Source of the DNA: Leptolyngbya sp. Cla-17
GTDB lineage: Bacteria > Cyanobacteriota > Cyanobacteriia > Leptolyngbyales > Leptolyngbyaceae
DNA: 32,000 nucleotides
Direction: 5' to 3'
Assembly: GCF_016807185.1 (NCBI RefSeq)
Contig: NZ_JAEVYN010000001.1
Coordinates: 245,145 to 277,144 of the forward strand
In this document: one piece after another, positions 2,378 to 31,043 of the stretch
Position numbering within the stretch: the first letter of the stretch is position 1
Layout: every line of letters begins with the position of its first letter
Position numbers and translations under genes: made by a program
The notes under the pieces: generated by a model
What the model saw: the letters and a program-made list of their open reading frames with translations, nothing else
What the model was told of the DNA's origin: nothing
Database searches by the model: none

Positions 2378-4084
2378 CTACAGAACCTCCAAAGAGAGAA
2401 TAGTTTGGTCGTCTTCTTGTATATCATTGTGCGATCGAATCCGGGCAAGCAAGTCTTTCAGATCCAAGGATGATTGATCTTGAATCAATAATTGCCATAA
2501 CCCGGTTTGTTGCAGCATGGCAGTGGCTTGATTGCTGCCATTAACTTGATTGGTACCATTAATCGGTTCCGCATTGTGGATGGTTGCTTCAGTAATGCCA
2601 TCACTGGTAAGCAAAAGAATCTCGCCGGGGTTAAGGTCAATGCTACCAGCAGCAGCTTTCCAATGCGGCAAGATGCCAAGGGGCACACCTCGCACTTTCA
2701 GATAATTCGGTTCGATTGTCACGGGTTGTCCTTGAGCGAGATGGGCTGAAACTGCTTCTCTAGACCAGACTAAGGGGTAAATGTGTCCGGCATTCGCATA
2801 GATCAGCTTGTGAGTGGATGGGGTGTAGCAGACTAACACCATGGTAATGAAACAGTTGGTGCTGACTAAATCTTCAGACAAGCTGCGATTTAAGTTTTGC
2901 ATCACAATATGAGGCTCTGGCGGCATTTCTTGAGAAAGTTCTCGCCGTAAGACAGAAATTGCGCTTGCCATGAACAGGGCAGCAGGAACGCCTTTTCCAG
3001 AAACATCTCCTACTGCTAACCAAACATCGCCTTGAGGATGGGCATAAACCTCAAAAAAGTCTCCGCCAACCTCCCGTGCCGGATAGCAACATGCTTGAAC
3101 TTTCATCCCCTTCAATTCGGGTAAAGTTTGCCGCAGCAGGTTGCCCTGAATTTGACGGGCAACTTCTAACTCTGCCCGCATTTGCTCGGCTTGCGTTTGC
3201 GTTTGCAGGTAAAGCTTCGCTTGAGAAATGGCAAGGGCAGCTTGTTCGGCAACTTCTTGAATAAGGGTAATGTCTTCGCTAGACCAAGGTGCAGCATCCA
3301 GTTCCCGATGCATGGCAAAGATAGCGAGGAAATCTTGCTGATAGGTGATGGGAACAACTAAGCGGTGCGGGCTACCTGTGATTTTATCGGTCTGAATTTG
3401 GCGTGTACTAAGGACATTTTGAATCAAGAGATCATCTGTGGACAAGGATTGTTGCGCGGGATTGCTGTTGTCTGCGTTGACGATCGCGGAGTGATAAAAA
3501 ACCTCGGTCGTCAGGCGATCGCCTTCTATAGGCTGTAAAATGCACTCACTCGCATTAAACGTTTGTACTAGAGTCGCTGCGATGGTTTGCAGCATACTGT
3601 CATAATTGAGCGATTCACGAATGGCTGTAGTTACAGCATTAAACAGCGACTCTCGACGCAGCGCCCGCCTGAGTTCGTTGGTGCGTTGTTTGACGATGCG
3701 GTAGGTTTCCCCTGCCTGCTGGATTACAACCTTAAGTTGGTCGGGCACCCACGGCTTGGTGATGTACTTAAACACCTTCCCGGCGTTAATGGCTTCCACT
3801 AAATCTTCAACATCCGTGTAGCCCGTTAACACAATCCGAATCGTATCGGGAAAGTGATCAACTGTTTTGCTGAGAAACTCAGTTCCTAGCATTTCTGGCA
3901 TTCGTTGGTCGGAGATGATGATTGCCATCTCGCCCTGTTCATCTAAAATCTTCAGCGCCTCGATCGCGCTTTCTGCCTTGACGACTTCAAAATCTCGCCG
4001 AAAAGTCCGGTACAACAGCGCCAGGTTATCTGGTTCGTCATCAACGACCATCAATTTCAGCTTGCCATCGATTTCCTCAGCCAT
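2378..4084 (-). CDS. Response-regulator receiver + GAF-like + PP2C (SpoIIE/RsbU-type) phosphatase
   Basis: REC domain (KLMVVDDEPDNL...ISDQRMPEMLGTEFL...KP), a central GAF-like region, and a C-terminal PP2C (GGDFFEV...VGDVSGKGVPAALFM...TSDGITEA). The ORF is open to 4114, but the ATG at 4084 (MAEEIDGK) fits the REC N-terminus better. Confidence 0.85.
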   Translation of the reverse strand: MAEEIDGKLKLMVVDDEPDNLALLYRTFRRDFEVVKAESAIEALKILDEQGEMAIIISDQRMPEMLGTEFLSKTVDHFPDTIRIVLTGYTDVEDLVEAINAGKVFKYITKPWVPDQLKVVIQQAGETYRIVKQRTNELRRALRRESLFNAVTTAIRESLNYDSMLQTIAATLVQTFNASECILQPIEGDRLTTEVFYHSAIVNADNSNPAQQSLSTDDLLIQNVLSTRQIQTDKITGSPHRLVVPITYQQDFLAIFAMHRELDAAPWSSEDITLIQEVAEQAALAISQAKLYLQTQTQAEQMRAELEVARQIQGNLLRQTLPELKGMKVQACCYPAREVGGDFFEVYAHPQGDVWLAVGDVSGKGVPAALFMASAISVLRRELSQEMPPEPHIVMQNLNRSLSEDLVSTNCFITMVLVCYTPSTHKLIYANAGHIYPLVWSREAVSAHLAQGQPVTIEPNYLKVRGVPLGILPHWKAAAGSIDLNPGEILLLTSDGITEATIHNAEPINGTNQVNGSNQATAMLQQTGLWQLLIQDQSSLDLKDLLARIRSHNDIQEDDQTILSLEVL

Positions 4085-8079: not shown

Positions 8080-9087
8080 CTAGAGATCGCCTTTTTCTTG
8101 TCCTGGCTCAATCACTTCTCGTACTCGATAAATCGGTCGTCCTTGCGATTCGTGATAGGTTCGCATTAGCAGTTCTGCCAATAGCCCAAAGCAAAACAAC
8201 TGTACTCCTGTCAAAATCAATACGACGACTAAAATCAGCAGGGGACGGTTAATGCTTTCCCCAAAGCTGAGCTTTAGGGTGGTGAGATACAAACCAATTA
8301 CCGTTCCTAAAAAGATCGATAACACGCCCATGGAACCGAACACATGCATCGGGCGCGTCAAAAACTTACGCATAAAGAAAACGGTTATCAAATCCATGAT
8401 GACGCGAATCGTGCGATCGAGTCCGTATTTGCTTTTGCCAAACTGCCGGGGATGATGGCGTACTGGAATTTCGGCAATCCGCGCACCTTCAATAAATGCC
8501 AGTGCGGGCAAAAAGCGGTGCAACTCACCATAGAGATTCATATCGGCGATCAGTTCTGAGCGATAGGCTTTGAGAGAGCAGCCATAATCGTGAACCTTGA
8601 CCCCGGTCACTTGGGCGATTAGCCAATTAGCAATTTGAGATGGAATTAACCGAGTGACCGTGGCATCCTGCCGATTTTTACGCCAACCGCTGACCAGGTC
8701 ATAGCCTTCGCTCAGTTTGCTAAGCAGGATGGGAATATCCGCCGGATCATTTTGCAAATCTCCATCCATCGTCACGATGATTTGCCCTTTGGCGTGGCTA
8801 AACCCTGCTGCCATTGCGGCGGTTTGCCCATAGTTACGCCGCAGAATCACACTGCGAAGATCGGTGCGATCGCTGGCAATTTGCTTCAGCCGATCAGCGG
8901 AACCATCGGTAGAGCCATCGTCAATACACAAGATTTCGTAGCTGATGTTGGCAGTGATCAGCGTGGCAGAAATCGCCTCTAATAAATGGGGCAGATTTTC
9001 GTATTCATTATGAATCGGGACGACGATAGAGACCTGAGGCTGGAGGGATGATGCCCACAATTTGCTGTTTTCAACAGTGAATGTCAT
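8080..9087 (-). CDS. Family-2 glycosyltransferase (polyprenyl-phosphate glycosyltransferase, ArnC/DPM1/GtrB-like)
   Basis: VSIVVPIHNEYENL, IDDGSTDGS, the DxD-like MDGDLQNDP, and two C-terminal TM helices. Confidence 0.9.
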   Translation of the reverse strand: MTFTVENSKLWASSLQPQVSIVVPIHNEYENLPHLLEAISATLITANISYEILCIDDGSTDGSADRLKQIASDRTDLRSVILRRNYGQTAAMAAGFSHAKGQIIVTMDGDLQNDPADIPILLSKLSEGYDLVSGWRKNRQDATVTRLIPSQIANWLIAQVTGVKVHDYGCSLKAYRSELIADMNLYGELHRFLPALAFIEGARIAEIPVRHHPRQFGKSKYGLDRTIRVIMDLITVFFMRKFLTRPMHVFGSMGVLSIFLGTVIGLYLTTLKLSFGESINRPLLILVVVLILTGVQLFCFGLLAELLMRTYHESQGRPIYRVREVIEPGQEKGDL

Positions 9088-9138
9088 GCGGAATTGAAAC
9101 GTTAGGGTGCATTGAGGGTGAGAAGACGCGATCTGATT

Positions 9139-9870
9139 CTACAGGGTTTGGCTGGGTTGATAGGTGGCAACGATGCGTCCGGCTCCCCGCAACTGAGCAT
9201 AGTAGGTTTGACCGATGCGGCTTGCTTGATCTGATAAGACATCGATCGCGATGCCATTGTGCCCCTGATCTTTGCCGGAACTGTGAATATAGTGGTTGTC
9301 GCCCAGGTACAGTCCAACATGGGTGGCTTTTTGGGGAGTGCCAAAAAAGATCAGATCGCCGGGTTGCAACTCTGAAACCGCGATCGCTTGAGTAAATGCT
9401 TCTTGCTGGTAAGCATCTCTCGGCAGCCACACGCCCACCGATGCAAAGGCGGCTTGCATCAAGCCAGAGCAATCGTAGTTGGGTGCCACTGTGCCGCCCC
9501 AGAGATAATGGTTGGGCTGATCTTTTGCTGCCTGAGTAAAGGCGATCGCGGCTGGAACTCTCGCTTGAATCTCTGTTGTAGAGAGCGAGATTGGCTGATA
9601 GGGATGAACTGCTTTCTCTAAATAGGCAAGATCTGCCATTGAAATCCAGCCGGGATAGTCATCTTCACACAGGCAAACGGCGATTGCGGCTGTGCTCTGA
9701 TCAGCAGCCAATTGTTCCAGCACTGTGGAAGTTCGCAGATGTCTGCCAACCGCTGCTTGAGTTGCCAACCGCTCTAACGCTGGCGAATCGAACACATCTA
9801 AAGATCGGCTACAACGGTACTCTGATTGAATTTCAGCCGTGTGAACCTGATTCGCTTGTAAAGAAATCAC
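9139..9870 (-). CDS. NlpC/P60 (C40) family cell-wall peptidase
   Basis: YLWGGTVAPNYDCSGLMQAAF (catalytic Cys), GDLIFFG, and THVGLYLGDNHYIHSS (catalytic His). GTG start in the ORF track. Confidence 0.9.
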   Translation of the reverse strand: MISLQANQVHTAEIQSEYRCSRSLDVFDSPALERLATQAAVGRHLRTSTVLEQLAADQSTAAIAVCLCEDDYPGWISMADLAYLEKAVHPYQPISLSTTEIQARVPAAIAFTQAAKDQPNHYLWGGTVAPNYDCSGLMQAAFASVGVWLPRDAYQQEAFTQAIAVSELQPGDLIFFGTPQKATHVGLYLGDNHYIHSSGKDQGHNGIAIDVLSDQASRIGQTYYAQLRGAGRIVATYQPSQTL

Positions 9871-15519: not shown

Positions 15520-15683
15520 AGCGTTTCACGTTTACTACAGGCTTCAATCATAGATAGAAAAGCTGGTTAAATGTTCCTCGGTCGCTTAGTTGAATCTGCA
15601 CGGGATCGACAAAGCCCAAGTCACGATAGCTAACGCAATTGAGTTGCAGAGTTGAAAATAACTTTTTCAGTTTTAGGTGTAAG

Positions 15684-16990
15684 CCCTGGTTGACTGACAC
15701 ATCTTTTCGACTCTAGCCTTCTAAGCAGTGCTGAGACTTTGTTCCAGAGAAATCGCACAATCAACAGTCGTGCATCTGAAATAGAGCGGTTGTTGCTGTG
15801 CCGCTTGAGATTTAGACGAAATGCAGGGAGCAGGGTCAAGGGCAGATTTGAGCGCCAGAGTCGTGGGCAGTCCCCAACCTTGCACGAGGGCTTTGCGAAT
15901 CCAATGCCAGCCAATCTTGAAATAGCTACTGCCCCGAAACCAATGCGGGTCAACCTGACGACGCTCACCTCGCTCCACCGCTGCTGTGCCCGCACTGGTC
16001 AAATAGAGAGTGGCAACGGCGAGTACCAAGCACAAGCGTGAGAGCATGGCAGCAGAACGGATGTGGGAGGATTCAAGTTGAAAACCGTTGGACTTATCAT
16101 CCAAAAAGTTCTCCTCAATATCCAACCTCAAGCCGTATTCAACAAAGGTTTCGGTCGTAGTGGGTTGGTCACTAACGACATACCAACGTTCCCGACTGGG
16201 ATAGTGATGAGCTAAGGCTAGATGCACCAGCCCATAGCGAGCTTTAGTGATCTTGACTTGATGCAGAAACAGGGCATGACTGGTCGATAGGGGGTAAAAC
16301 GAGATGGGTGTACCCTGCTGACCGCGATACACCAGAAAGTTGGACTTGACCCGAATCCGGTAGTGCCAGCCCAAACGATGCAGGTGTTTGAATAACTCTA
16401 CGTCAGCAAAGCCTCGGTCTGCCAAAAACAAGACTTCAACCCCTGCGGGCAATACCTCAACGACGGCATCCAACAGCGGAGCGTAGGTGGCATAAGCAAC
16501 GGTACTGCTAGAATGCTTCAGCACCTTCCAGACCACTGGAATTCCTCGTCCTCGGTATACGGCCACAATCCGAATGATGCAGTATTGCTCCCACAGCCGC
16601 GTGGTGTCGAGTGCCAGAACAATACGCTCTTGCTGCCAAACCGATAGGGCATATCCAATCAACCGGGCATACAACGAATGCTCGTGTACCCGCTCATTCT
16701 GAAGCCACCGTGAAAATCGCCGTTGCGTACTCTGAGCATAAACCGCACGACTTCGCACATAATCGCTCCATGCCGTTAAGCTGATTTGTCCGCTGGCAAC
16801 CAGTCCTGCGACCATCCAGACCAGAGGGTACAAGTGGCGCTGATCTCGCCAGCGACAGTGTTGACCCAGCAACGCTTGCAGCGCATCATAGAGGCGAGGG
16901 GTGTTTTCCTTAGCGACTTCTGTTGATGTGGTAATCCTCAGAGTACTTGGATTGGCCCCTCTTCCAAGTTTTTGTGTCAGTCAGCCAGGG
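15684..16990 (-). mobile_element. IS4-family insertion sequence (1307 bp)
   Basis: Terminal inverted repeats CCCTGGTTGACTGACAC (15684-15700) and GTGTCAGTCAGCCAGGG (16974-16990) match at 16/17. The flanking direct repeat is TGTAAG (15678-83 / 16991-96), or 8 bp (GGTGTAAG) if the last GG of the right IR counts as target. One DDE transposase ORF lies inside. Confidence 0.85.
15721..16872 (-). CDS. IS4-family DDE transposase
   Basis: D (LALDTT), D (LADRGF), and the IS4 signature Y-2-R-3-E-6-K (YGLRLDIEENFLDDK). There is no in-frame ATG. The frame is open upstream to 16980 (..STEVAKENTPRLYDALQALLGQ..), so the true start is a non-ATG codon or has been lost. Confidence 0.85.
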   Translation of the reverse strand: MLGQHCRWRDQRHLYPLVWMVAGLVASGQISLTAWSDYVRSRAVYAQSTQRRFSRWLQNERVHEHSLYARLIGYALSVWQQERIVLALDTTRLWEQYCIIRIVAVYRGRGIPVVWKVLKHSSSTVAYATYAPLLDAVVEVLPAGVEVLFLADRGFADVELFKHLHRLGWHYRIRVKSNFLVYRGQQGTPISFYPLSTSHALFLHQVKITKARYGLVHLALAHHYPSRERWYVVSDQPTTTETFVEYGLRLDIEENFLDDKSNGFQLESSHIRSAAMLSRLCLVLAVATLYLTSAGTAAVERGERRQVDPHWFRGSSYFKIGWHWIRKALVQGWGLPTTLALKSALDPAPCISSKSQAAQQQPLYFRCTTVDCAISLEQSLSTA

Positions 16991-18322: not shown

Positions 18323-20107
18323 ATGCAGCAATCAGACAGTCAAGATTCCTCAATGCAGTCACTTCAGCGGGTGCTGAAAAGCTTGAATGCTTACCGCTGG
18401 CTGTCTCTGGGCGCGTTTCTTAGTCTACTGCTGTTGACGGCGGCAAATGCGATAACTCCGCAGCTATTTCGCTGGGGAATTGATCAGGGGATTGAAAAAC
18501 CAGATCTGAAAATCGTGTTGTACAGCGCGGGTGCAATGGTGGTAACCGCGATCGCCCGTGGCGTGTTCAACTTTGGTCAGAGCTTTTGGGCAGAAGCCGC
18601 CTCTCAAGGGGTTGCCTATGATCTGCGAAACAAGATTTTTAGCAAAATCCAAACCCTCAGTTTTAGCTATCACGATCAGGCGCAAACCTCGCAACTGCTG
18701 ACCCGTGTGACCAGTGACATTGAGCAAATCCGCACATTTCTGGGCACCAGCCTGATTCAGGTGCTGAGTTCTGTGGTGACATTGGTGACGATTGCGGTGA
18801 TTTTGCTGGTGATGAACTGGCAGCTAGCCCTGATTACGCTGACGGTCGTGCCGATGGCAGGTTGGCTGTTGGCTCGTTTTCTGATGCGCAATGGTAAGTT
18901 GTTTCGCCAGGTGCAGGAGCAATTGAGCGATCTGAATGCCATCTTGCAAGAGAACTTGCTGGGGGTGCGGGTGGTGAAGGCGTTTGTGCGTGAGTCTGCC
19001 GAAGCGCAGCGCTATACAGCGTTGAATGAGGCGCTGGTGACGGCGAACATGAAAACCATTCGGGCGATTCACAATACGTTTCCAGTGATTTTTTTGCTCA
19101 GCAATTTGGTCACGCTGGTGGTGTTTGGTTATGGCGGGGCACAGGTGATTGGCGGCAACTTTTCGATTGGTGAACTGGTGGCGTTTAACTCTTATTTGCT
19201 AGTGATTTTGCAGCCAATTTTGCTGATTGGGTTTGCGGCACCGGCGATCGCCCAGGCGGCGGCTTCTGCGGAGCGAGTGTATGAAGTGGTGGATGCCAAG
19301 GTGGAAATTCGCGATCGCCCCGGTGCCGTGCCCTTTGAAACCTGTGGCGGCAGAATCACCTTTGAAAACGTGTCGTTTCGCTATCCGGGAGCGACGACTG
19401 AAGCGCTTAAGGGTATGTCGTTTGAGACAAAACCCAAGGAACTAATTGCCGTGCTGGGCATGACAGCTTCGGGCAAAAGTACGATTATGAACCTGATTCC
19501 GCGCTTTTACGACGTGACCACTGGAGCCGTGCGGATTGACGGGCGGGATGTGCGAGATTTTACTCTGGCAAGTTTGCGATCGCACATTGGCATTGTCTTT
19601 CAAGAAACGACGCTGTTTTCGGGCACCCTGCGGGAAAATATTGCCTATGCCAAACCCAACGCCACCCTGGATCAAGTAATTGAAGCGGCAACTACGGCGC
19701 AGATTCACGACTTTATTGCCGCCCTGCCCGATGGCTATGAAACGATTGTGGGAGAGCGCGGTGTGGGCTTGTCGGGGGGACAAAAGCAGCGGGTGGCGAT
19801 CGCCCGGACTCTGCTAACCGACTACAGCATTCTGATTTTGGATGACAGCACCTCGGCGGTGGATGCCCAGACCGCATCCCAAATTCAGGCGGCGCTGGAT
19901 GACCTGATGCGCCGCCGAGCCTGCGTTACCTTTGTGGTCGCCCAACGCATCAGCACGGTGAAAAATGCTGATCGCATTTTTTTGATGGACAAAGGACGAT
20001 TGATGGCACAGGGCACCCACGAGGAGTTGATGCAAACCAGTCCACTCTATGGCGCAATTTTGGAATCGCAAGTGGCACGATCGCCGGAGCGATCGCCGTC
20101 AAAATAG
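18323..20107 (+). CDS. ABC exporter, fused permease/ATPase (MsbA/MdlB-like)
   Basis: Six-TM exporter domain plus an NBD with Walker A GMTASGKST, signature LSGGQKQRVAIAR and Walker B ILILDDSTSAVD. Confidence 0.9.
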   Translation: MQQSDSQDSSMQSLQRVLKSLNAYRWLSLGAFLSLLLLTAANAITPQLFRWGIDQGIEKPDLKIVLYSAGAMVVTAIARGVFNFGQSFWAEAASQGVAYDLRNKIFSKIQTLSFSYHDQAQTSQLLTRVTSDIEQIRTFLGTSLIQVLSSVVTLVTIAVILLVMNWQLALITLTVVPMAGWLLARFLMRNGKLFRQVQEQLSDLNAILQENLLGVRVVKAFVRESAEAQRYTALNEALVTANMKTIRAIHNTFPVIFLLSNLVTLVVFGYGGAQVIGGNFSIGELVAFNSYLLVILQPILLIGFAAPAIAQAAASAERVYEVVDAKVEIRDRPGAVPFETCGGRITFENVSFRYPGATTEALKGMSFETKPKELIAVLGMTASGKSTIMNLIPRFYDVTTGAVRIDGRDVRDFTLASLRSHIGIVFQETTLFSGTLRENIAYAKPNATLDQVIEAATTAQIHDFIAALPDGYETIVGERGVGLSGGQKQRVAIARTLLTDYSILILDDSTSAVDAQTASQIQAALDDLMRRRACVTFVVAQRISTVKNADRIFLMDKGRLMAQGTHEELMQTSPLYGAILESQVARSPERSPSK

Positions 20108-20179: not shown

Positions 20180-20677
20180 ATGAATAACGATCGCCTGCGT
20201 CAAATCGAGGAAAACTTAAACCTCCTGCGAGAACAGCAAGCCTCTTTGGAACGAGAAGCTTTGCTTACGACAGGATTGCCAAAAACTCAGGCAGAGCAGC
20301 GATTGCGGCTAGAAATCAAGCCAAAAATTCGTGACTATGAGCAAGAATACTGGCAGATTTTAGCCGAGAATATCAACCAGCTAGCCATCCTCGAACCAGA
20401 AGCAGAAGTGGCAATAGCAGAAATTGTCAAATCGGTTGCCCAGATCGAAGTACAGCAGACTGATGCCTGCTCTGCCGAAGTGCTGCAAATCTTGCGGGAA
20501 ATTCGGGACAAACTGAACCAGCTAGGAACGACCGCCGCCGCAAAGCTCAAGGGTGTAATTTCGTCGATTCCTCCGTTTATTGGAGTTTCCTATGAGGCAG
20601 AGCTAGACACAGAAAACTTTTTCCGCAAACATTTCCCAACTTTTACCCGCGTCATTAAAGGTGCGGCAAAAAAGTAA
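20180..20677 (+). CDS. Uncharacterised 165-aa protein; likely the N-terminal (effector/adaptor) module of the downstream STAND NTPase
   Basis: ATG start. It has a heptad-rich N-terminal helix (RLRQIEENLNLLREQQASLERE) and a hydrophobic/aromatic C-terminal segment (GVISSIPPFIGVSYEAELDTENFFRKHFPTF). It ends GCA AAA AAG TAA, where the NB-ARC frame opens in -1. Confidence 0.65.
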   Translation: MNNDRLRQIEENLNLLREQQASLEREALLTTGLPKTQAEQRLRLEIKPKIRDYEQEYWQILAENINQLAILEPEAEVAIAEIVKSVAQIEVQQTDACSAEVLQILREIRDKLNQLGTTAAAKLKGVISSIPPFIGVSYEAELDTENFFRKHFPTFTRVIKGAAKK

Positions 20678-20716
20678 GTGCTTCTCCTGGTAAGAGTAGA
20701 GGCGGTCAGGAGAAGC
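20668..20716 (+). promoter_or_regulatory. Candidate programmed -1 ribosomal frameshift cassette
   Basis: Slippery heptamer A_AAA_AAG (20668-74) is in phase with the zero frame. A 5-nt spacer follows, then a perfect 10-bp stem GCTTCTCCTG (20680-89) / CAGGAGAAGC (20707-16) with a 17-nt loop. Confidence 0.45.
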
Positions 20717-21993
20717 CCATCCCACACAATCTCGACCAACGCGGTACGGATATTTTCGTTGGACGAGAGCAGGAATTAATCGATTTGCACACGCTGTTGC
20801 AGGGAGAAAACGCTGTGGCAATTTCGGCAATCTCTGGCATGGGTGGGATTGGCAAGACCGAATTAGCAGTGCAGTATGCGTGGACACATCTGGTGCAGAA
20901 AACCTATCCAGGTGGGGTAGTTTGGTTAAAAGCACGGGAAGACATCGCCACACAAATTGTGCTGTTTGTTAGATCGCTGCCAATGCCGCAGCCACCGGAT
21001 GATTTTGACCCAGCAGCAAAGGTTGCATTTTATTGGCGCAACTGGCAAGACGCGAAAACGCTGGTGATTCTGGATGATGTCCAGGATTACGGTGCCATCA
21101 AACCGCTGTTACCAGTAGACCCGCACTTCAAAATTTTGCTGACCACTCGATCGCGGTTGCAATTGCCCGTGCATGATTTTGAAATCAAGGTGCTGTCGGA
21201 GGAGAAGGCGATCGAGTTGTTGAGGGCGATCGTCACCGATGGACGAATTGACCAGCAAATTGATGAAGCAAAGCGAATTTGTCAATGGTTGGGCTACTTG
21301 CCGCTTGGCTTAGAGCTAGTCGGGCGATATCTGGCGCGAAAACCGGATACATCACTGGCAACCCTGTGGCAACGCTTGCAGGACAAAAAGCTGAACGCGA
21401 AAGCATTGAAAGATGCCGTCCCGGAAATGACCGCCACTTTGGGAGTCACCGCCGCCTTTGAATTGAGTTGGGACGTATTGGACGAGCCAGTGCAACAGTT
21501 GGCTGCATTACTGAGTCTGTTTGCCCTGGCAGAAATTCCCTGGATATTAGTAGAGGGGTGTTTGCCAGAAAACGATGCCGAAGCGTTAGAAGATCTGCGG
21601 GATGAGTCACTCCTCAACCTGCATCTGCTGGAGCGAACTGGACAAGGGACGTATCAACTGCACCAACTGCTGCGCGAGTTTTTTGCGGCAAAGCGGGAGC
21701 AGAGGTCAGAGGCACTCGTGATGAAACAAACCCTTTGTCAAGTCATGGCAGCAGTGGCAGAGCAACTGCCAATAATCACAACCCGTTCCCAAATTGAGCA
21801 ATTTGCAGTCGTCATTCCTCATCTCAAAGAAGCAACCACCACTCTACAGCCTTGGCTCACTGATGCTGATGTATTTAAACTCTCTACTCGCATTGCCCAA
21901 TTCTATGCAGGACAGTTAGACTACCTCGAAGCACTGCTTTGGTATCAGCACTGTCGAGAAACGTCTGAAAATCGTTTAGGCAGTGATCATCCT

Positions 21994-23132
21994 GACGTGG
22001 CAATTACTCTGAATAATCTGGCAGGACTTTACCGATTGCAGGGACGCTATAGCGAAGCAGAACCGTTACATCTGCGCTCGCTCGAAATCGATCAACGCTG
22101 TTATGGAGATAATCATCCCGCAATTGCCACTGATCTCAATAATCTTGCACTCCTCTACGACTCCCAGGGACGTTACAGCGAAGCGGAATCCCTATGCTTA
22201 AGATCTTTAGAAATTGAGAAACGAACTCTGGGAGAAAACCAGCCTCGATTTGCCATGGGACTCAATAGTCTGGCAGGAATCTACCGATCTCAGGGACTCT
22301 ACAGTGAAGCGGAACCGTTGTATCTGAGATCTCTCACCATCCAAGAATGGCAGTTAGGCGCGGAGCATCCCGACGTTGCCCAAAGTCTCAATAATCTGGC
22401 AGCACTCTACGAATCTCAGGGACGCTATGGGGATGCAGAACCCCTATATCAGAGATCTCTCGCCGTCTATGAAAGCAGTTTGGCACAGAGCATTTCCATG
22501 TCGCTAGTAGCCTTAACAATCTGGCAAACCTCTACCGAGTGCAGGGACGCTATAGCGAAGCGGAACCATTGTGCCAGAGATCTCTCACCATCTATGAGCA
22601 GCGGTTGGGCACGGAGCATCCCCATGTCGCCAGCATCCTCAACAATCTGGCAAGCCTCTACGAATCGCAGGGACGCACCAACGAAGCCGAACCACTGTAC
22701 TTGAGATCTCTCACCATTCTTGAACAGACTTTTGGCCCAGAGCATCCCCATTCCCAGGTCGCTAGCAGTCTCAATAATCTGGCAGAACTCTACCGAGTGC
22801 AGGGACGCTATAGCGAAGCGGAACCCCTACGCTTAAGAGGTCTAGAAATTGAGAAAGAAACTTTGGGAGAGAACCATCCTCAATTTGCTTCTAGCCTCAA
22901 CAATCTCGCACTCCTCTATGAATCCCAAGGACGCACCAGCGAAGCCGAACCACTATATCTGCAATCACTCCAGATTATGGAGCAGCAGTTAGGGGCAGAC
23001 CATCCCACTACCGCCACCAGCCTGAATAATTTGGCAGAGTTATACCACTCCCAAGGACGCTATGGGGAAGCAGAACCGTTGTATCTGCAATCTCTAGAGA
23101 TCTTGACCGCAAAGCTTGATCTGAACCACCCC
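21994..23132 (+). repeat. Nine tandem 126-bp (42-aa) TPR-coding units
   Basis: The anchor GGACG(C/T)TA..GAAGC recurs at 22042, 22168, 22294, 22420, 22545, 22671, 22803, 22929 and 23055. The spacings are 126, 126, 126, 125, 126, 132, 126, 126. Confidence 0.95.
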
Positions 23133-23430
23133 AACATCCAGCAAGTGCGAAAAAATCTTGCCATTCTTTACGACAGCATGGCAACTCAATTCAAACTGCA
23201 AGAGCGCTACGACAAAGCTGTGAAATATTTGGAAAAGGCGATCGCTTTACATCAGTTAGCAAAGTAAAAAGGAGTGACAAGATGAGCGGTCTACTATAGT
23301 TGATGACAATCAGGAGCATGAAATTACCGAATGGCGATCAGAGCATCCGCTGACACAAGACCTATAGCCTTTTCCTATTGGATAAGGTACAGTTTTAGAG
23401 ATGTTTGCAGCTCCAAAAGAGTTGATAGAG

Positions 23431-23529: not shown

Positions 23530-23602
23530 TGGAGCTAAGCGGATTCGAACCGCTGACCTTCTCAATGCCATTGAGACGCGCTACCAACTGTGCTATAGCC
23601 CC
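23530..23602 (-). tRNA. tRNA-Ala (anticodon GGC)
   Basis: Folded by hand. Acceptor GGGGCTA/TAGCTCC includes the G3:U70 Ala identity pair. Anticodon stem TCTCA/TGAGA with loop ATGGCAT, T-arm AGCGG-TTCGAAT-CCGCT. CCA is not encoded. Confidence 0.9.
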
Positions 23603-23680: not shown

Positions 23681-24769
23681 ATGACTGAAAATTCCCACGA
23701 TGATGCTGCATCCAATCCCGATAAAGCTGAGATCAACGCCTCAGAACTATTTCTCAATCTTCGGCGCAAGCAGGGAAGCTGGGTGTCATGGGGGCAAGCC
23801 TGCCAAGCGTTGCAAAAAGCGGGTTATGACGCTCAAACTATTTTTGAAGAGACTGGATTTGAACCGATTCAACAAAATCAAGTGATTGTGGGCGCTCAGG
23901 TACATGCCACGATTATGGCGGTGGGCGTATCTGAGGCGACGAAGGCGCTTTTCGATCGCAAAGGTAGCGACATTTTGTATGAACTGCGGATTTTAACCCA
24001 GCCAGAGCGAGCTGCAACTGCGGATTTAGTTCAGGAAAAAGGATTGGATATTGATGAAGCAAAAGATGTAGTCAAAGCCGTCAAAGATTTTTCTCGATTG
24101 GGTGCGATTCCTGAAGGCTTTAGCCAACATCCGGGTGATGTGGTGGCGTATCAATCCTGGAAGCAGGCACGCCAAAAATCCGATTTGCAAGAGCGATCGC
24201 GCTTGATCGCAAAAGGGTTGCGCTTTGCCCATAGCGAACCAGCCCGCAAGCAAATTGAAAAACTGCTAACCGATTTCGCTGTGGTGCCAAACAAGCCCGA
24301 GCCACTGCTGCCGCTTTATCGATTGGAAGAAGATGAATTTTTGCCCCGGATCATTCCGGTTGTGGGCAAGTTTCCCCTGACAAAAACTGATCTGCAAGCC
24401 GTTCCTATCCTGGAAGAAGAAGACTCCTTTGGCATGGTGCAGTTTACAGGCACAGGGGCTTGGGTTTCTGTGCCCGGTTGGCAGGTGATTCGGCTGGCAG
24501 AAGATCCAGTTGCCGTTTTAGAAATCAGCGATCGCCTTCCCACTCAGCTTCCTGGCAGAGCAGAGGAAGTGTTGATTATCGTCGATCGCGCCCAGCGCAC
24601 TTGGGATGCCAGTAGCTACTTTTTAATCGAAGAAGCCAATCAACTCCACATTCGCTGGTTTACAGAAACGCCAGAAGCAGCCATTTTAGGACGAATCGTT
24701 TTGATTATGCGTCCTAAAAAGGTGCTAGACAACGAGTACACCAAAGATCCTTGGCAAATGGAAGAATAG
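23681..24769 (+). CDS. raf1: RuBisCO accumulation factor 1 (Raf1)-like protein
   Basis: 362 aa. The N-terminal WVSWGQACQALQKAGYDAQTIFEETGFEPIQQNQVIVGAQV matches my recollection of the conserved Raf1 alpha-domain, and size and layout fit. Needs confirmation by search. Confidence 0.65.
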   Translation: MTENSHDDAASNPDKAEINASELFLNLRRKQGSWVSWGQACQALQKAGYDAQTIFEETGFEPIQQNQVIVGAQVHATIMAVGVSEATKALFDRKGSDILYELRILTQPERAATADLVQEKGLDIDEAKDVVKAVKDFSRLGAIPEGFSQHPGDVVAYQSWKQARQKSDLQERSRLIAKGLRFAHSEPARKQIEKLLTDFAVVPNKPEPLLPLYRLEEDEFLPRIIPVVGKFPLTKTDLQAVPILEEEDSFGMVQFTGTGAWVSVPGWQVIRLAEDPVAVLEISDRLPTQLPGRAEEVLIIVDRAQRTWDASSYFLIEEANQLHIRWFTETPEAAILGRIVLIMRPKKVLDNEYTKDPWQMEE

Positions 24770-28320: not shown

Positions 28321-30216
28321 TACTACAGTTGTAGATGTTGAATTTATGATTGTATTTCGCCTAGAATCAGCGTCAAACCAGTGTTCTAGGTGATGCGTGA
28401 TGACTCTCGCCCTTGCCCAAATCGACCTCAGTGAAGCCGAGGTCGAGTCAAATCTGAAACAGCTTGAGACTTGGGCCAGCGACCTCGATGCCCTCATGAT
28501 TCGGCTGGCCCCGCGCTTCAAACGCGCAGAGCTGCGAGAGCGCGCGAAAGAGTATGTGCAAGGATTGCTCAGTGCAGCTGAGCGGAAGAATAGCTGGCAA
28601 ATCGCAGAACAACTGGGCAAGCCCACACCGTATGGGATGCAACATCTCCTCGGTCGAGCCCAGTGGAATGCCGATTTAGTGAGAGACGACGTGCAAGCCT
28701 ATGTGAATGAAGCGTTGGGCGATCGAGAAGCGGTGTTTGTGCTCGATGAAACAGGCTTTCTCAAAAAAGGCGACCACTCAGCTGGGGTGCAACCGCAGTA
28801 CAGTGGCACCGGCAATGGGATTGAAAACTGTCAGGTCGGCGTCTTTCTCGGCTATGCCGCCGCCGATGGCTACACGTTGATTGATCGAACACTGTATCTA
28901 CCGCAACGTTGGCTGGATGAGCCAGAGCGATGTGCTCAAGCTGGCATTCCGCCAGAGGCCGCCTTTGCGACCAAGCCGATGCTGGCACAACGCCTGTTAG
29001 AACGGGCGTTTGCGGCGGGACTGCCAGGCCGTTGGGTGACTGGGGATGAAGTCTACGGGCGCGATGCCCGCTTGCGGCAATGGTTAGAAGCACGGCATCA
29101 AGCGTATGTCCTGACCACTTGGTCAAAAGAGAACGTTGGGCGCGATGCCCTATCGATGCGCATCGAGGAACTCGCCATGAGTTGGCCCGCTGAAGAATGG
29201 CACCGGCTCAGTTGTGGGACGGGCACGAAGGGAGAACGCTACTTTGACTGGACTTGTATGCCGATTAACAGTCCCAAAGGGTGCGATTGGCAGCACTGGG
29301 CACTCGTCCGACGGGGCATCGAACACCCAGAAGACTGGGCTTATTATCTGGTGTTTGCGCCGCCTGGAACGTCTTTGCAGACGATGGTGCAGGTTGCCGG
29401 TCGGCGCTGGACGATCGAGGTTTGTTTCGAGAGTGCCAAAGGGGAAGTCGGGCTGGATGAGTATGAAGTGCGTTCATGGAATGGCTGGTATCGCCATATG
29501 ACGTTAGCGCTACTGGCCCACGCTTTCTTAACGGTGACGCGAGCGCAGGCGGCTAAAAAAGGGCTTTCAACGGTGACTGCTGCCCAGTACCGCCCTCCGG
29601 TGCAGCCGTCGCAGGCATGGGCCGTGTGCCCTTGAGTGTGGCTGAACTGCGTCACTTGCTATGGCGCTTAGCTTGGCAGCCTCCATTGAGTCCTCGACAG
29701 CTGTTGCATTGGTCCTCATGGCGACGACGGCATCAAGCGATTGCCCAGTTCTACCACTTCAAGCGTCGAGCGTTAGCCATGCGGTGGCGAAAACTGCTAA
29801 TGGTTCATTCCGTAGAGGTGCCTCCAGAATGCACAGTCGCAGACATCGCTGATCGACTGTCTGTAAAAATGGTCTTCGCGTTGCCCTTGCTTTGGCTAGC
29901 CACCGCTGCATCGAGCAATAGTAGTGGCAGACAATGAAGCTGATTTCAGCACTGTGCAAGCTCTTGTGGAAGCGAGTGGTTGAGTGCTTGCCGGTCAAGC
30001 AACTAGCCAAGAAGATGAGACAGGGGTGTCACCGTTGCCCTATCTTGGTTGAGCGCGCGTTTCCGGTCGGACTAACCGAGGCGACAGTCTCACGAGTTTA
30101 GGGCGTTGTAGCGGACTGTGAAGGATTGGGTTAGTTCGATTTTAGCCCTGCTGACTTTTGAGACGTTGAATCTTTATATGAGACGGCCTCGGAGATGAGG
30201 ATCTACAACTGTAGTA
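28321..30216 (+). mobile_element. IS701-family insertion sequence (1896 bp)
   Basis: 16-bp perfect terminal inverted repeats TACTACAGTTGTAGAT (28321-36) and ATCTACAACTGTAGTA (30201-16). The flanking 4-bp direct repeat is TAAT (28317-20 / 30217-20); a 4-bp duplication is the IS701-family norm. An IS701-type transposase lies inside. Confidence 0.85.
28397..29937 (+). pseudogene. IS701-family DDE transposase, reading frame broken near the C-terminus
   Basis: GRRWTIEVCFESAKGEVGLDEYEVRSWNGWYRHMTLALLAHAFL is the typical IS701 core. The conserved tail LSVAELRHLLWRL...LHWSSWRRRHQAIAQFYHFKRR is in the -1 frame (open from 29557), while the main frame stops at 29635. Confidence 0.8.
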
Positions 30217-30524: not shown

Positions 30525-31043
30525 ATGCAAACTCATCAGCCACGAATACTACAAAACCAGGTGGTGGTGTTCTCTAAGAACTACCTACCCTTGGCACGAA
30601 TCAACATTAAGCGGGCGATCGCGTTGTTGGTTACGGGTCAGGCAGAATCGCTGGAATTTAGCAGTACTCAGCAATGGGAAGTGCGATCGCCCAGCATCGT
30701 ACTACAAGTTACGGAACATATCCGCCTCACAGATGGCAACCCACAGCGGCATTGGAAAGTGCCTCCTGTAAACCGCCGAGAGGTTTTTCGCCGTGATGAC
30801 CACACCTGCCAATACTGCGGCAGCACCAAGCATCTGACGCTGGATCACGTCATCCCTCGTTCAAAAAATGGACAACACAGTTGGGATAACGTCGTCACTG
30901 CTTGCGAAAAGTGCAACTCGAAAAAGGGCGATCGCCTGCTGCACGAAATTGGCATGGTGCTACAAAGCAAGCCCAAAGCACCCATCCATCCCGCTGTTGC
31001 CTTCGCAGACCAGTTCTGGAAAGAGCAACAAAGCAGCATTTAA
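30525..31043 (+). CDS. Small HNH endonuclease (McrA/COG1403-like)
   Basis: 172 aa with the HNH core CQYCGSTKHLTLDHVIPRSKNGQHSWDNVVTACEKCNSKKGDR. A GAGGAG SD lies 8 nt upstream. Confidence 0.9.
   Translation: MQTHQPRILQNQVVVFSKNYLPLARINIKRAIALLVTGQAESLEFSSTQQWEVRSPSIVLQVTEHIRLTDGNPQRHWKVPPVNRREVFRRDDHTCQYCGSTKHLTLDHVIPRSKNGQHSWDNVVTACEKCNSKKGDRLLHEIGMVLQSKPKAPIHPAVAFADQFWKEQQSSI

Follow-up and report, generated by a model that had tools for sequence, protein, structure and literature searches.

Is an NTPase gene that has no start codon and lies one frame behind the short gene preceding it a broken gene, or is it the second half of a recoded one? This question is raised by a locus of Leptolyngbya sp. 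Cla-17, which we analyzed within a 32,000-nucleotide (nt) stretch of the genome (contig NZ_JAEVYN010000001.1, positions 245,145 to 277,144 of the forward strand), here called the window and numbered from its first letter. In it, an open reading frame (ORF) of 165 amino acids (aa), hereafter the module, runs into a start-less ORF for an NB-ARC-TPR protein of the STAND/NLR-like NTPase type. An initial annotation, made from the sequence alone, had proposed that a programmed -1 frameshift at this junction yields both the free module and a module-NTPase fusion. The proposal is supported by the recurrent split with its heptamer, stop codon, and start-less ORF, by a covarying downstream hairpin, and by natural fusions carrying one extra A. 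The junction is thus probably a conserved programmed -1 ribosomal frameshift that gives a free module and a module-NLR fusion.

Anatomy of the frame junction

The ORF call for the module covers positions 20180 to 20677 of the plus strand, stop included, and its 3' end reads GGT GCG GCA AAA AAG TAA. The NB-ARC frame is -1 relative to the module ORF; it is limited upstream by a TAA at 20656 to 20658 (plus strand), 10 nt before the heptamer, and opens at 20659, so that the two frames overlap by 16 nt. This overlap holds the slippery heptamer A_AAA_AAG (20668 to 20674, plus strand) in the zero-frame phase GCA AAA AAG, with the zero-frame stop TAA (20675 to 20677, plus strand) directly 3' of it. 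Following a 5-nt spacer, a candidate stimulatory hairpin spans 20680 to 20716 (plus strand); its 10-bp stem consists of the perfectly paired arms GCTTCTCCTG (20680 to 20689) and CAGGAGAAGC (20707 to 20716), which enclose a 17-nt loop. A Shine-Dalgarno (SD)-like AAGGTG at 20658 to 20663 (plus strand) was listed as a possible upstream stimulator. The -1-frame continuation (20674 to 22473, plus strand) encodes a linker, the FVGRE lead-in, an NB-ARC domain with the P-loop GMGGIGKT, and the first TPR_10/12 repeats. In the reconstructed product, Pfam NB-ARC (PF00931) matches residues 205 to 411 with E = 3.3e-16, the P-loop motif is present, and TPR_10/12 is matched too; the nearest relatives of the NB-ARC part are 88 to 90% identical. 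The first ATG, GTG, or TTG of the -1 frame is a TTG at 20785 to 20787 (plus strand), downstream of the FVGRE motif, and the peptides VSASPGK and SRGGQEKPIPHNLDQR are encoded upstream of it. All coordinates in the initial annotation (ORF end, -1 frame, overlap, heptamer, stem, AAGGTG, and TTG) hold on rereading of the sequence, as does its observation that the FVGRE lead-in precedes the first possible start. By itself, the heptamer occurs no more often in the window than expected (9 seen versus 10.5 expected), and its significance therefore comes from context. Taken together, the phase, the position, the hairpin, and the conservation across more than 100 loci are far beyond chance.

By this reading, standard decoding would stop at the TAA at 20675 to 20677 and release the module as a free 18-kDa, 165-aa helical protein. 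A fraction of the ribosomes, probably paused by the hairpin, would slip from GCA-AAA-AAG to GC-AAA-AAA-G and continue in the -1 frame, which would join the module covalently to the NB-ARC-TPR NTPase. The predicted trans-frame junction is ..GAAKK|VSASPGK.., within the junction-spanning stretch ..GAAKKVSASPGK...

Conservation of the slip site

We retrieved 57 genomic and 56 metagenomic DNA loci, each anchored at the conserved ..FPTF motif, and tallied 109 loci (the window and 108 others) with an in-phase A-rich heptamer at the module end. The exact A_AAA_AAG with an A6 run occurs in 81/109 loci, and 17, mostly from Nostocales, have an A9 to A10 run in the -1 arrangement. The zero-frame stop is placed 0 or 3 nt past the heptamer in 83 of the 109, the -1 frame opens at most 9 nt before the heptamer in 75/109, and the +1 frame is closed almost immediately. 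The -1 ORF spans at least 300 nt or runs off the contig in 89/109 loci (55 of these ORFs reach at least 900 nt) and is shorter than 300 nt in 6/109. A count of stop-free -1 frames is partly circular because the loci were picked for long -1 ORFs, and 89/109 is taken as the real statistic. The recurrence of split, heptamer, and hairpin among relatives had been named in the initial annotation as a check on the frameshift; all of these 89 loci, which come from many cyanobacterial genera, show the split together with the in-phase heptamer, the stop, and the start-less -1 ORF.

The slip site itself is conserved beyond the needs of the protein, with synonymous positions fixed. In the loci with an A6 or A7 run, the codon before AAA AAG ends in A without exception (90/90), namely, GCA (67), CTA (9), CCA (8), GTA (3), GGA (2), and ACA (1), encoding Ala, Leu, Pro, Val, Gly, and Thr, respectively; as a background, the same codon families end in A only 19 to 37% of the time within the same genes. 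The heptamer is also invariant in 11 Microcoleus loci. The upstream SD-like motif is a different matter. It is present in the window as the initial annotation had it, and AAGG recurs in many lineages at about -11 to -7, a position confounded with conserved K-G/K-A/K-V residues. The gap between AAGGTG and the heptamer is only 4 nt in the window, and the spacing of such motifs is 4 to 7 nt overall. The optimal spacing of the SD stimulator of dnaX, an element that frameshift sites of this type do not strictly need, is 10 to 14 nt. AAGGTG is not clearly a stimulator.

Loci of the Nostoc/Anabaena type (L014, L023, L031, L033 to L037, L046, L067, L068, L071, and L079) carry an A9 to A10 run (ATT AAA AAA AAA CAG) and no hairpin. 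Their -1 frame is closed by a TAA that arises from AT|TAA where the run begins; the module is partnered there by an nSTAND_NTPase4 protein. These loci look like a shift from ribosomal to transcriptional slippage inside one family.

Coding status of the start-less stretch

Counted from the heptamer, the first ATG, GTG, or TTG of the -1 frame is found at +99 to +798 nt across loci; conserved motifs, e.g., FVGR at +84 to +96, usually precede it. Codon-level variation indicates that this start-less stretch is translated in the -1 frame. In the 11 Microcoleus loci, all variable sites between +60 and the first ATG at +117 (7/7) are synonymous third positions of the -1 frame. In 8 Nostocales loci, 30% of the codon differences over the first 60 nt after the A run are synonymous when read in the -1 frame, versus 9% and 20% in the other two frames.

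Database entries for these proteins begin at other places. The public NLR entries P0001, P0002, P0004, P0006, and P0010 start at arbitrary internal codons (MFVGRE.., MQGENAV.., MGGIGKT.., MYPRHQRCGKKV..), which suggests that N termini are systematically misannotated in databases. The nearest NB-ARC relatives of the window are likewise annotated without an N-terminal module. In the Stenomitos frigidus ULC029 entry (P0010), the annotated start MYPRHQRCGKKV is what the end of its own upstream module ORF encodes in the -1 frame. In current annotation, each locus appears as two entries, a "hypothetical protein" and a "tetratricopeptide repeat protein" that is truncated at its N terminus and has an arbitrarily placed start, so that censuses of bacterial NLR architectures would miss the N-terminal module entirely.

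The downstream hairpin

The window hairpin folds with -17.1 kcal/mol (z = -2.8; 1 of 200 shuffles was equally stable). The minimum free energy of the whole 55 nt was set aside as insufficiently discriminating, any 55-mer folding to about -10 kcal/mol, and it was replaced by a positional statistic that compares the best local hairpin starting 1 to 8 nt past the heptamer with 40 control positions in the same genes. With this statistic, the window scores -16.2 versus -6.7 +/- 3.8 at the controls (rank 0.025). Ranks of 0.05 or below were obtained for 33/83 A6/A7 loci and, after clustering of the 45 nt following the heptamer at 75% identity, for 19 of 40 clusters (binomial, about 1e-11). A hairpin lies 1 to 6 nt downstream of the heptamer in many lineages, and the stem sequences vary by lineage: besides GCTTCTCCTG/CAGGAGAAGC, the pairs GGTCTCCCGATC/GATCGGGAGAC, GGCTTCTG/CAGAAGCC, and TATCCCCTG/CAGGGGATA were found, as were the further lineage-specific stems TCCTCCGATC/GATCGGAGGA, GTCCGCGATC/GATCGTGGAC, and CCCCTCGA/TCGAGGGG. 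Covariation was assessed on 12 junctions from the window's clade, aligned with MAFFT without regard to structure (A4); the Coleofasciculaceae alignment (A3) was not used for pair counts because its 3' arms are out of register. In A4, 86% of the cells of the window helix are paired, versus 39 to 53% when the partner columns are slid; 5 pairs have changed on both sides, and 16 cells are compensatory (0/500 shuffles). The hairpin with compensatory changes envisaged at the outset is hence borne out within the window's clade and is not family-wide. At the junction, a search of Rfam found neither a known frameshift element nor another family.

A second inverted repeat is present at 20730 to 20741 and 20757 to 20768 (TCTCGACCAACG/CGTTGGACGAGA; 12 nt, 92% complementary, with a 15-nt loop). 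It sits within the HNLDQRGTDIFVGRE lead-in, about 55 nt past the slip site.

Partners of the module and natural fusions

The -1-frame partners of the module comprise NB-ARC-TPR, NB-ARC-DUF7779, NACHT, nSTAND_NTPase4, transmembrane (TM)-TPR, and WD40-only proteins. Leptolyngbyaceae UHCC 1019 (L002), the closest NB-ARC ortholog of the window, is 87.5% identical to it at the nucleotide level over 2.5 kb and has a different upstream ORF, the homology starting only at HNLDQRGTDIFVGRE. The variety of partners and the different ORF upstream in UHCC 1019 indicate that the slip site belongs to the module, which has been paired with many sensors. The cassette would accordingly be portable, the same module and slip site being found with NACHT, nSTAND4, TM-TPR, and WD40 partners elsewhere.

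Three lineages with one extra A exactly at the slip site are single-ORF fusions. They encode a 629-aa module-TPR protein (L008; A7), a 722-aa module-NACHT protein (L051/L105/L106; A7, with L105 and L106 from independent assemblies), and an 875-aa module-nSTAND4 protein (L035; A10 versus A9 in its sisters). The junction residues of these natural fusions (AKK-V, AKK-A, and IKKK-T) are the predicted trans-frame products of the split relatives. In distant homologs, the module stands in frame and N-terminal to nSTAND1, TIR (P0354), TM-TPR, or TM-Peripla_BP_6. The extra-A fusions and the in-frame distant homologs argue that the fused polypeptide is a biologically real architecture.

UHCC 1019 lacks the 165-aa module at about 2647 to 3000 of its locus and has instead a 94-aa ORF ending in ..QVFGGEGFQNNDPQAPIFQGVHNSPININYNYGNKPID. 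This ORF is in the same frame as NB-ARC, with one TGA between them, and its tail is Q/N/G-rich and looks like an amyloid-signaling (BASS-like) motif. The arrangement could be one of stop codon readthrough or a simple effector/NLR pair.

A second frame break in the TPR array

The gene in the window is interrupted once more, downstream of the junction, at a place that the initial annotation had missed. Alignment with UHCC 1019 locates a second, nonprogrammed frame break, a 1-nt deletion in the TPR array, at 22470 to 22476 (plus strand). At about 22473 to 22474, the window reads TATGAA-AGCAG versus TATGAGCAGCAG in the intact ortholog, and a slippery motif is not present at the site. The TPR array of the window is thereby not contained in one intact ORF, being interrupted at about 22474. 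The remaining six-plus TPR repeats and the C terminus (22473 to 23267, plus strand) are readable in the third frame only; the 42-aa TPR period is kept across the break, and ..SLAVYE|KQFGTEHFHVASSLNNL.. is obtained only once one base is restored. The break may be a recent lesion or may stem from misassembly of a repetitive array; unless the latter holds, a long product would be aberrant here.

This second break made an explanation by sloppy sequence or a pseudogene worth serious testing. General assembly sloppiness in the window was rejected, as the other long ORFs are intact with clean Pfam matches. The overlapping ORFs at 9071 to 9870 and 15630 to 16872 were considered as split genes and rejected; they are shadow ORFs or a transposase.

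Weighing the explanations

Comparative sequence analysis supports the anatomy of the junction, its conservation, the coding of the -1 stretch, the covariation of the hairpin, and the in-frame fusions. The split is kept in more than 90% of the loci though a one-base insertion would fuse the frames, which suggests a need for both products and selection on their ratio; the ribosomal nature of the slippage, its efficiency, and the free-to-fused ratio as a selected function are what we infer. Several points weigh against a programmed ribosomal frameshift. The support for the trans-frame protein and for frameshifting is comparative throughout, and the loci are phylogenetically related, so that raw counts overstate their independence. 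The hairpin is not universal: 9/40 clusters rank above 0.5, the conserved 9-bp stem of Microcoleus is not exceptional in energy, and the Nostocales A9/A10 loci have no detectable hairpin. The SD-like motif upstream has a noncanonical spacing, and an A6 run could in principle allow low-level transcriptional slippage. In addition, the NLR of this copy is broken again at about 22474, and a Foldseek search of PDB with the confident model of the module retrieved no fold relative (best E = 0.8).

If RNA polymerase added one A to some of the mRNAs, standard translation would yield the fusion. Such programmed transcriptional realignment agrees with in-frame relatives differing by exactly one extra A, and it is plausible for the Nostocales members with A9 to A10 runs and no detectable hairpin; slippage is established at this length, e.g., in Thermus dnaX (cited in PMC3711429). 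A homopolymer of about 8 to 9 or more A/T occurs only in these Nostocales-type relatives, whereas the window has A6. Indeed, 81/109 loci, the window included, have only A6 and an invariant G, with the run held in one codon phase, and a covarying hairpin is found 1 to 6 nt downstream in many lineages. Such features are typical of ribosomal -1 slippage and would not be required by a slipping polymerase. We therefore regard realignment as unlikely. Quite unlikely, too, is the production of separate polypeptides without recoding, in which ribosomes ending the module ORF would open the hairpin, with its SD-like 3' arm (CAGGAGAAG), and reinitiate downstream, so that the NTPase would start at a noncanonical codon (ATC, ATT, or CTG) through translational coupling. 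Several hairpin 3' arms are purine-rich and SD-like (GGAGA, GGGAGA, and GGAGGA), an ATC or ATT (the I of IPHNL) lies 5 to 6 nt past the SD-like arm in the window and in L005, and overlapping pairs of effector and NLR ORFs are frequent in filamentous bacteria (bioRxiv 10.1101/2020.01.06.895854). However, coupling leaves unexplained the in-phase heptamer, the A-ending codon before it, the opening of the -1 frame at most 9 nt upstream, the stop-free, codon-like evolution of the -1 frame from the slip site onward, and the A7/A10 single-ORF fusions, and the combination of an SD-like 3' arm with AT[CT] is not conserved in the Microcoleus, Coleofasciculaceae, or Nostocales loci.

The competing explanation offered in the initial annotation, i.e., that one A has gone from an A7 run by mutation or homopolymer miscall and the locus is a broken fusion gene, could draw on the plainly nonprogrammed 1-nt deletion at about 22474 of the same gene and on the few relatives that have A7 and are contiguous. 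It is refuted by the A6 split in more than 80 independently assembled genomes and metagenomes, in which stop placement and structure are kept down to a module identity of about 40%; the other genes of the window are intact as well. As an account of the junction, an artifact or recent lesion is extremely improbable. Decay of the NLR in this particular genome is compatible with a programmed frameshift in the family: the gene would be a pseudogene, the cassette a relic, and only the free module functional. Owing to the deletion in the TPR array, about 77 codons are out of frame and six-plus repeats are cut off, and partner loss does occur, as the six loci with a short -1 ORF illustrate. Nonetheless, the lesion is single, no stops follow in the correct TPR frame, and the nucleotide identity to the intact ortholog is maintained over 2.5 kb; a single lesion in an otherwise open array suggests a very recent mutation or an assembly error. 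We consider decay possible but doubtful.

The 165-aa module

P0121, annotated as a hypothetical protein of Phormidium/Leptolyngbya sp. CLA17, matches the window module with 100% identity, and the module has 493 homologs. Among the 120 homologs listed, nearly all are stand-alone ORFs of 162 to 168 aa from many filamentous cyanobacteria, with identities down to about 53%, and almost all end in ..xKK plus 0 to 3 residues. A profile search of 1.84 billion representatives returned 300 clusters, in which the module is nearly always at the very end of its ORF. The AF2 model has 7 helices (pLDDT 90, pTM 0.82). No family was matched in Pfam or NCBIfam, a subthreshold Pfam DisA-linker match (E = 0.006) not being meaningful. 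The same holds for the only PADLOC match of the module, a weak one to JetC (E = 0.0037), and for the best hit of a sequence profile search of PDB (E = 0.11). Within the NB-ARC-TPR part, the TPR repeats matched a TPR family in PADLOC (E = 1.2e-07), a weak match that was judged not meaningful either. By its sequence contexts, the module behaves like an adaptor domain of the effector-associated type.

In P0244, P0246, P0318, and others, the module is found at the C-terminal end of long ORFs that still end in ..AKK-stop. It is preceded there by, e.g., an SNF2-like helicase or an NB-ARC-TPR-like protein; these are true fusions or read-through ORF calls.

Relation to known systems

The tau/gamma arrangement of Escherichia coli dnaX resembles the junction in having the same heptamer A_AAA_AAG with a hairpin downstream of it and in making two products with a common N terminus in a fixed ratio (PMC3711429). 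Unlike here, where the zero frame stops and the shift would give the long product, the shift in dnaX gives the short product through a -1-frame stop; moreover, its SD stimulator is 10 nt upstream rather than 4 to 7 nt, and the genes are unrelated. The closest architectural match appears to be OrfA/OrfAB of the IS3 family (IS911/IS150), in which the site is likewise of the A_AAA_AAG type and closely followed by the stop of the zero frame, the -1 ORF lacks a start, a structure lies downstream, and the full protein is a trans-frame fusion made besides a short product (PMC5009743). In contrast to IS3 elements, no mobile element or transposase is involved here, the partner is a STAND NTPase, and one N-terminal domain is combined with at least five partner classes. 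The junction can further be likened to the tail assembly chaperones of phages (touched on in PMC13581612). G/GT provide an abundant short form and a rare frameshift-extended form with a common N-terminal domain for one assembly. A similar stoichiometry logic may apply to the module and its fusion, G/GT belonging, in contrast, to a viral structural system with no detected homology.

Effector-associated domains (EADs) of NTP-dependent conflict systems are fused directly to their partners or encoded in adjacent genes (Kaur et al. 2020, PMC7159879). Similarly to them, the module is a small, nonenzymatic, all-helical terminal domain on STAND NTPases and on an effector-type protein (module-TIR, P0354), and it is preponderant in multicellular cyanobacteria, with several copies per genome. 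Consistently with the definition of an EAD as a small terminal domain shared by NTPases and effectors, it was found in frame with nSTAND1, NACHT, nSTAND4, TIR, and TM-sensor proteins. It differs in matching no Pfam EAD or other described family, and the word "frameshift" does not occur in PMC7159879. In Bell/BASS pairs, a short amyloid motif is shared by the C terminus of the effector and the N terminus of the NLR (Dyrka et al., bioRxiv 10.1101/2020.01.06.895854). There, too, an NB-ARC/NACHT-TPR/WD gene of filamentous cyanobacteria is directly preceded, and often overlapped, by a gene for a small helical protein, and the study reports frequent ORF overlaps in effector/NLR pairs without considering recoding. 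The coupling proposed here would differ in being a covalent trans-frame fusion. The shared-motif model was rejected for our locus, a BLASTP comparison of the C-terminal 53 aa of the module with the first 70 aa of the NLR giving no alignment at E <= 100.

The mechanism is a classic -1 frameshift; what would be new is its large, portable use, by which an adaptor domain would be joined to NLR-like sensors by recoding. Conserved programmed frameshifts are few in nonmobile, nonviral bacterial genes, the usual examples being dnaX, copA, and csoS2 (PMC5009743). The initial annotation had called such a device unfamiliar from STAND or Avs-type proteins, and we found no mention of frameshifting in STAND, NLR, NB-ARC, or NACHT genes in the open-access full-text literature, which is not proof of absence. 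The works covered include the GeneTack survey, the 2016 review of recoding, Aravind-lab studies of conflict systems, the 2026 phylogeny of STAND proteins, and the Bell/BASS study. If correct, our interpretation would add a family of at least 300 clusters at 50% identity across filamentous cyanobacteria and would place recoding inside NLR-like STAND systems, in which the stoichiometry of N-terminal adaptors and effectors is central to signalosome firing. We tentatively propose that the cassette is a portable recoding device for the wiring of NLR signalosomes, with an abundant free adaptor, a rare adaptor-NLR "nucleator," and a ratio set by frameshift efficiency. An activated NLR might then template or recruit the free adaptor pool, or the free adaptor might cap the NLR and keep it silent. 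The ratio might also be conditional, e.g., on tRNA-Lys modification or on translation stress in phage infection, making frameshifting part of the immune switch. As module and slip site have been joined to at least five classes of sensor, the frameshift itself would be what evolution selects. The cassette of heptamer and hairpin, with the in-frame A7 variants as controls, would offer a compact system for the free-to-fused adaptor ratio and NLR control.

Surroundings of the locus

The neighbors in the window are ordinary, and the NLR locus is in no obvious defense island. An ABC-transporter-like ORF (18323 to 20107) lies upstream of it, and the gene for the Rubisco accumulation factor Raf1 (23681 to 24769, plus strand) lies directly downstream. 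A DDE_Tnp_1 transposase is encoded at 15721 to 16872 on the minus strand. At 28397 to 29937 (plus strand), a 412-aa DDE_5 transposase ORF and the 106-aa ORF after it share 19 nt, the latter ORF being in the -1 frame, and no slippery motif is present in this overlap. Decoding of AAG only by tRNA-Lys(UUU) is the basis of the high efficiency of A_AAA_AAG in E. coli. The tRNAs encoded in the window are those for Ala, Asp, and Cys only, among them tRNA-Ala(GGC) at 23530 to 23602 on the minus strand. An HNH endonuclease is encoded at 30525 to 31043 on the plus strand.

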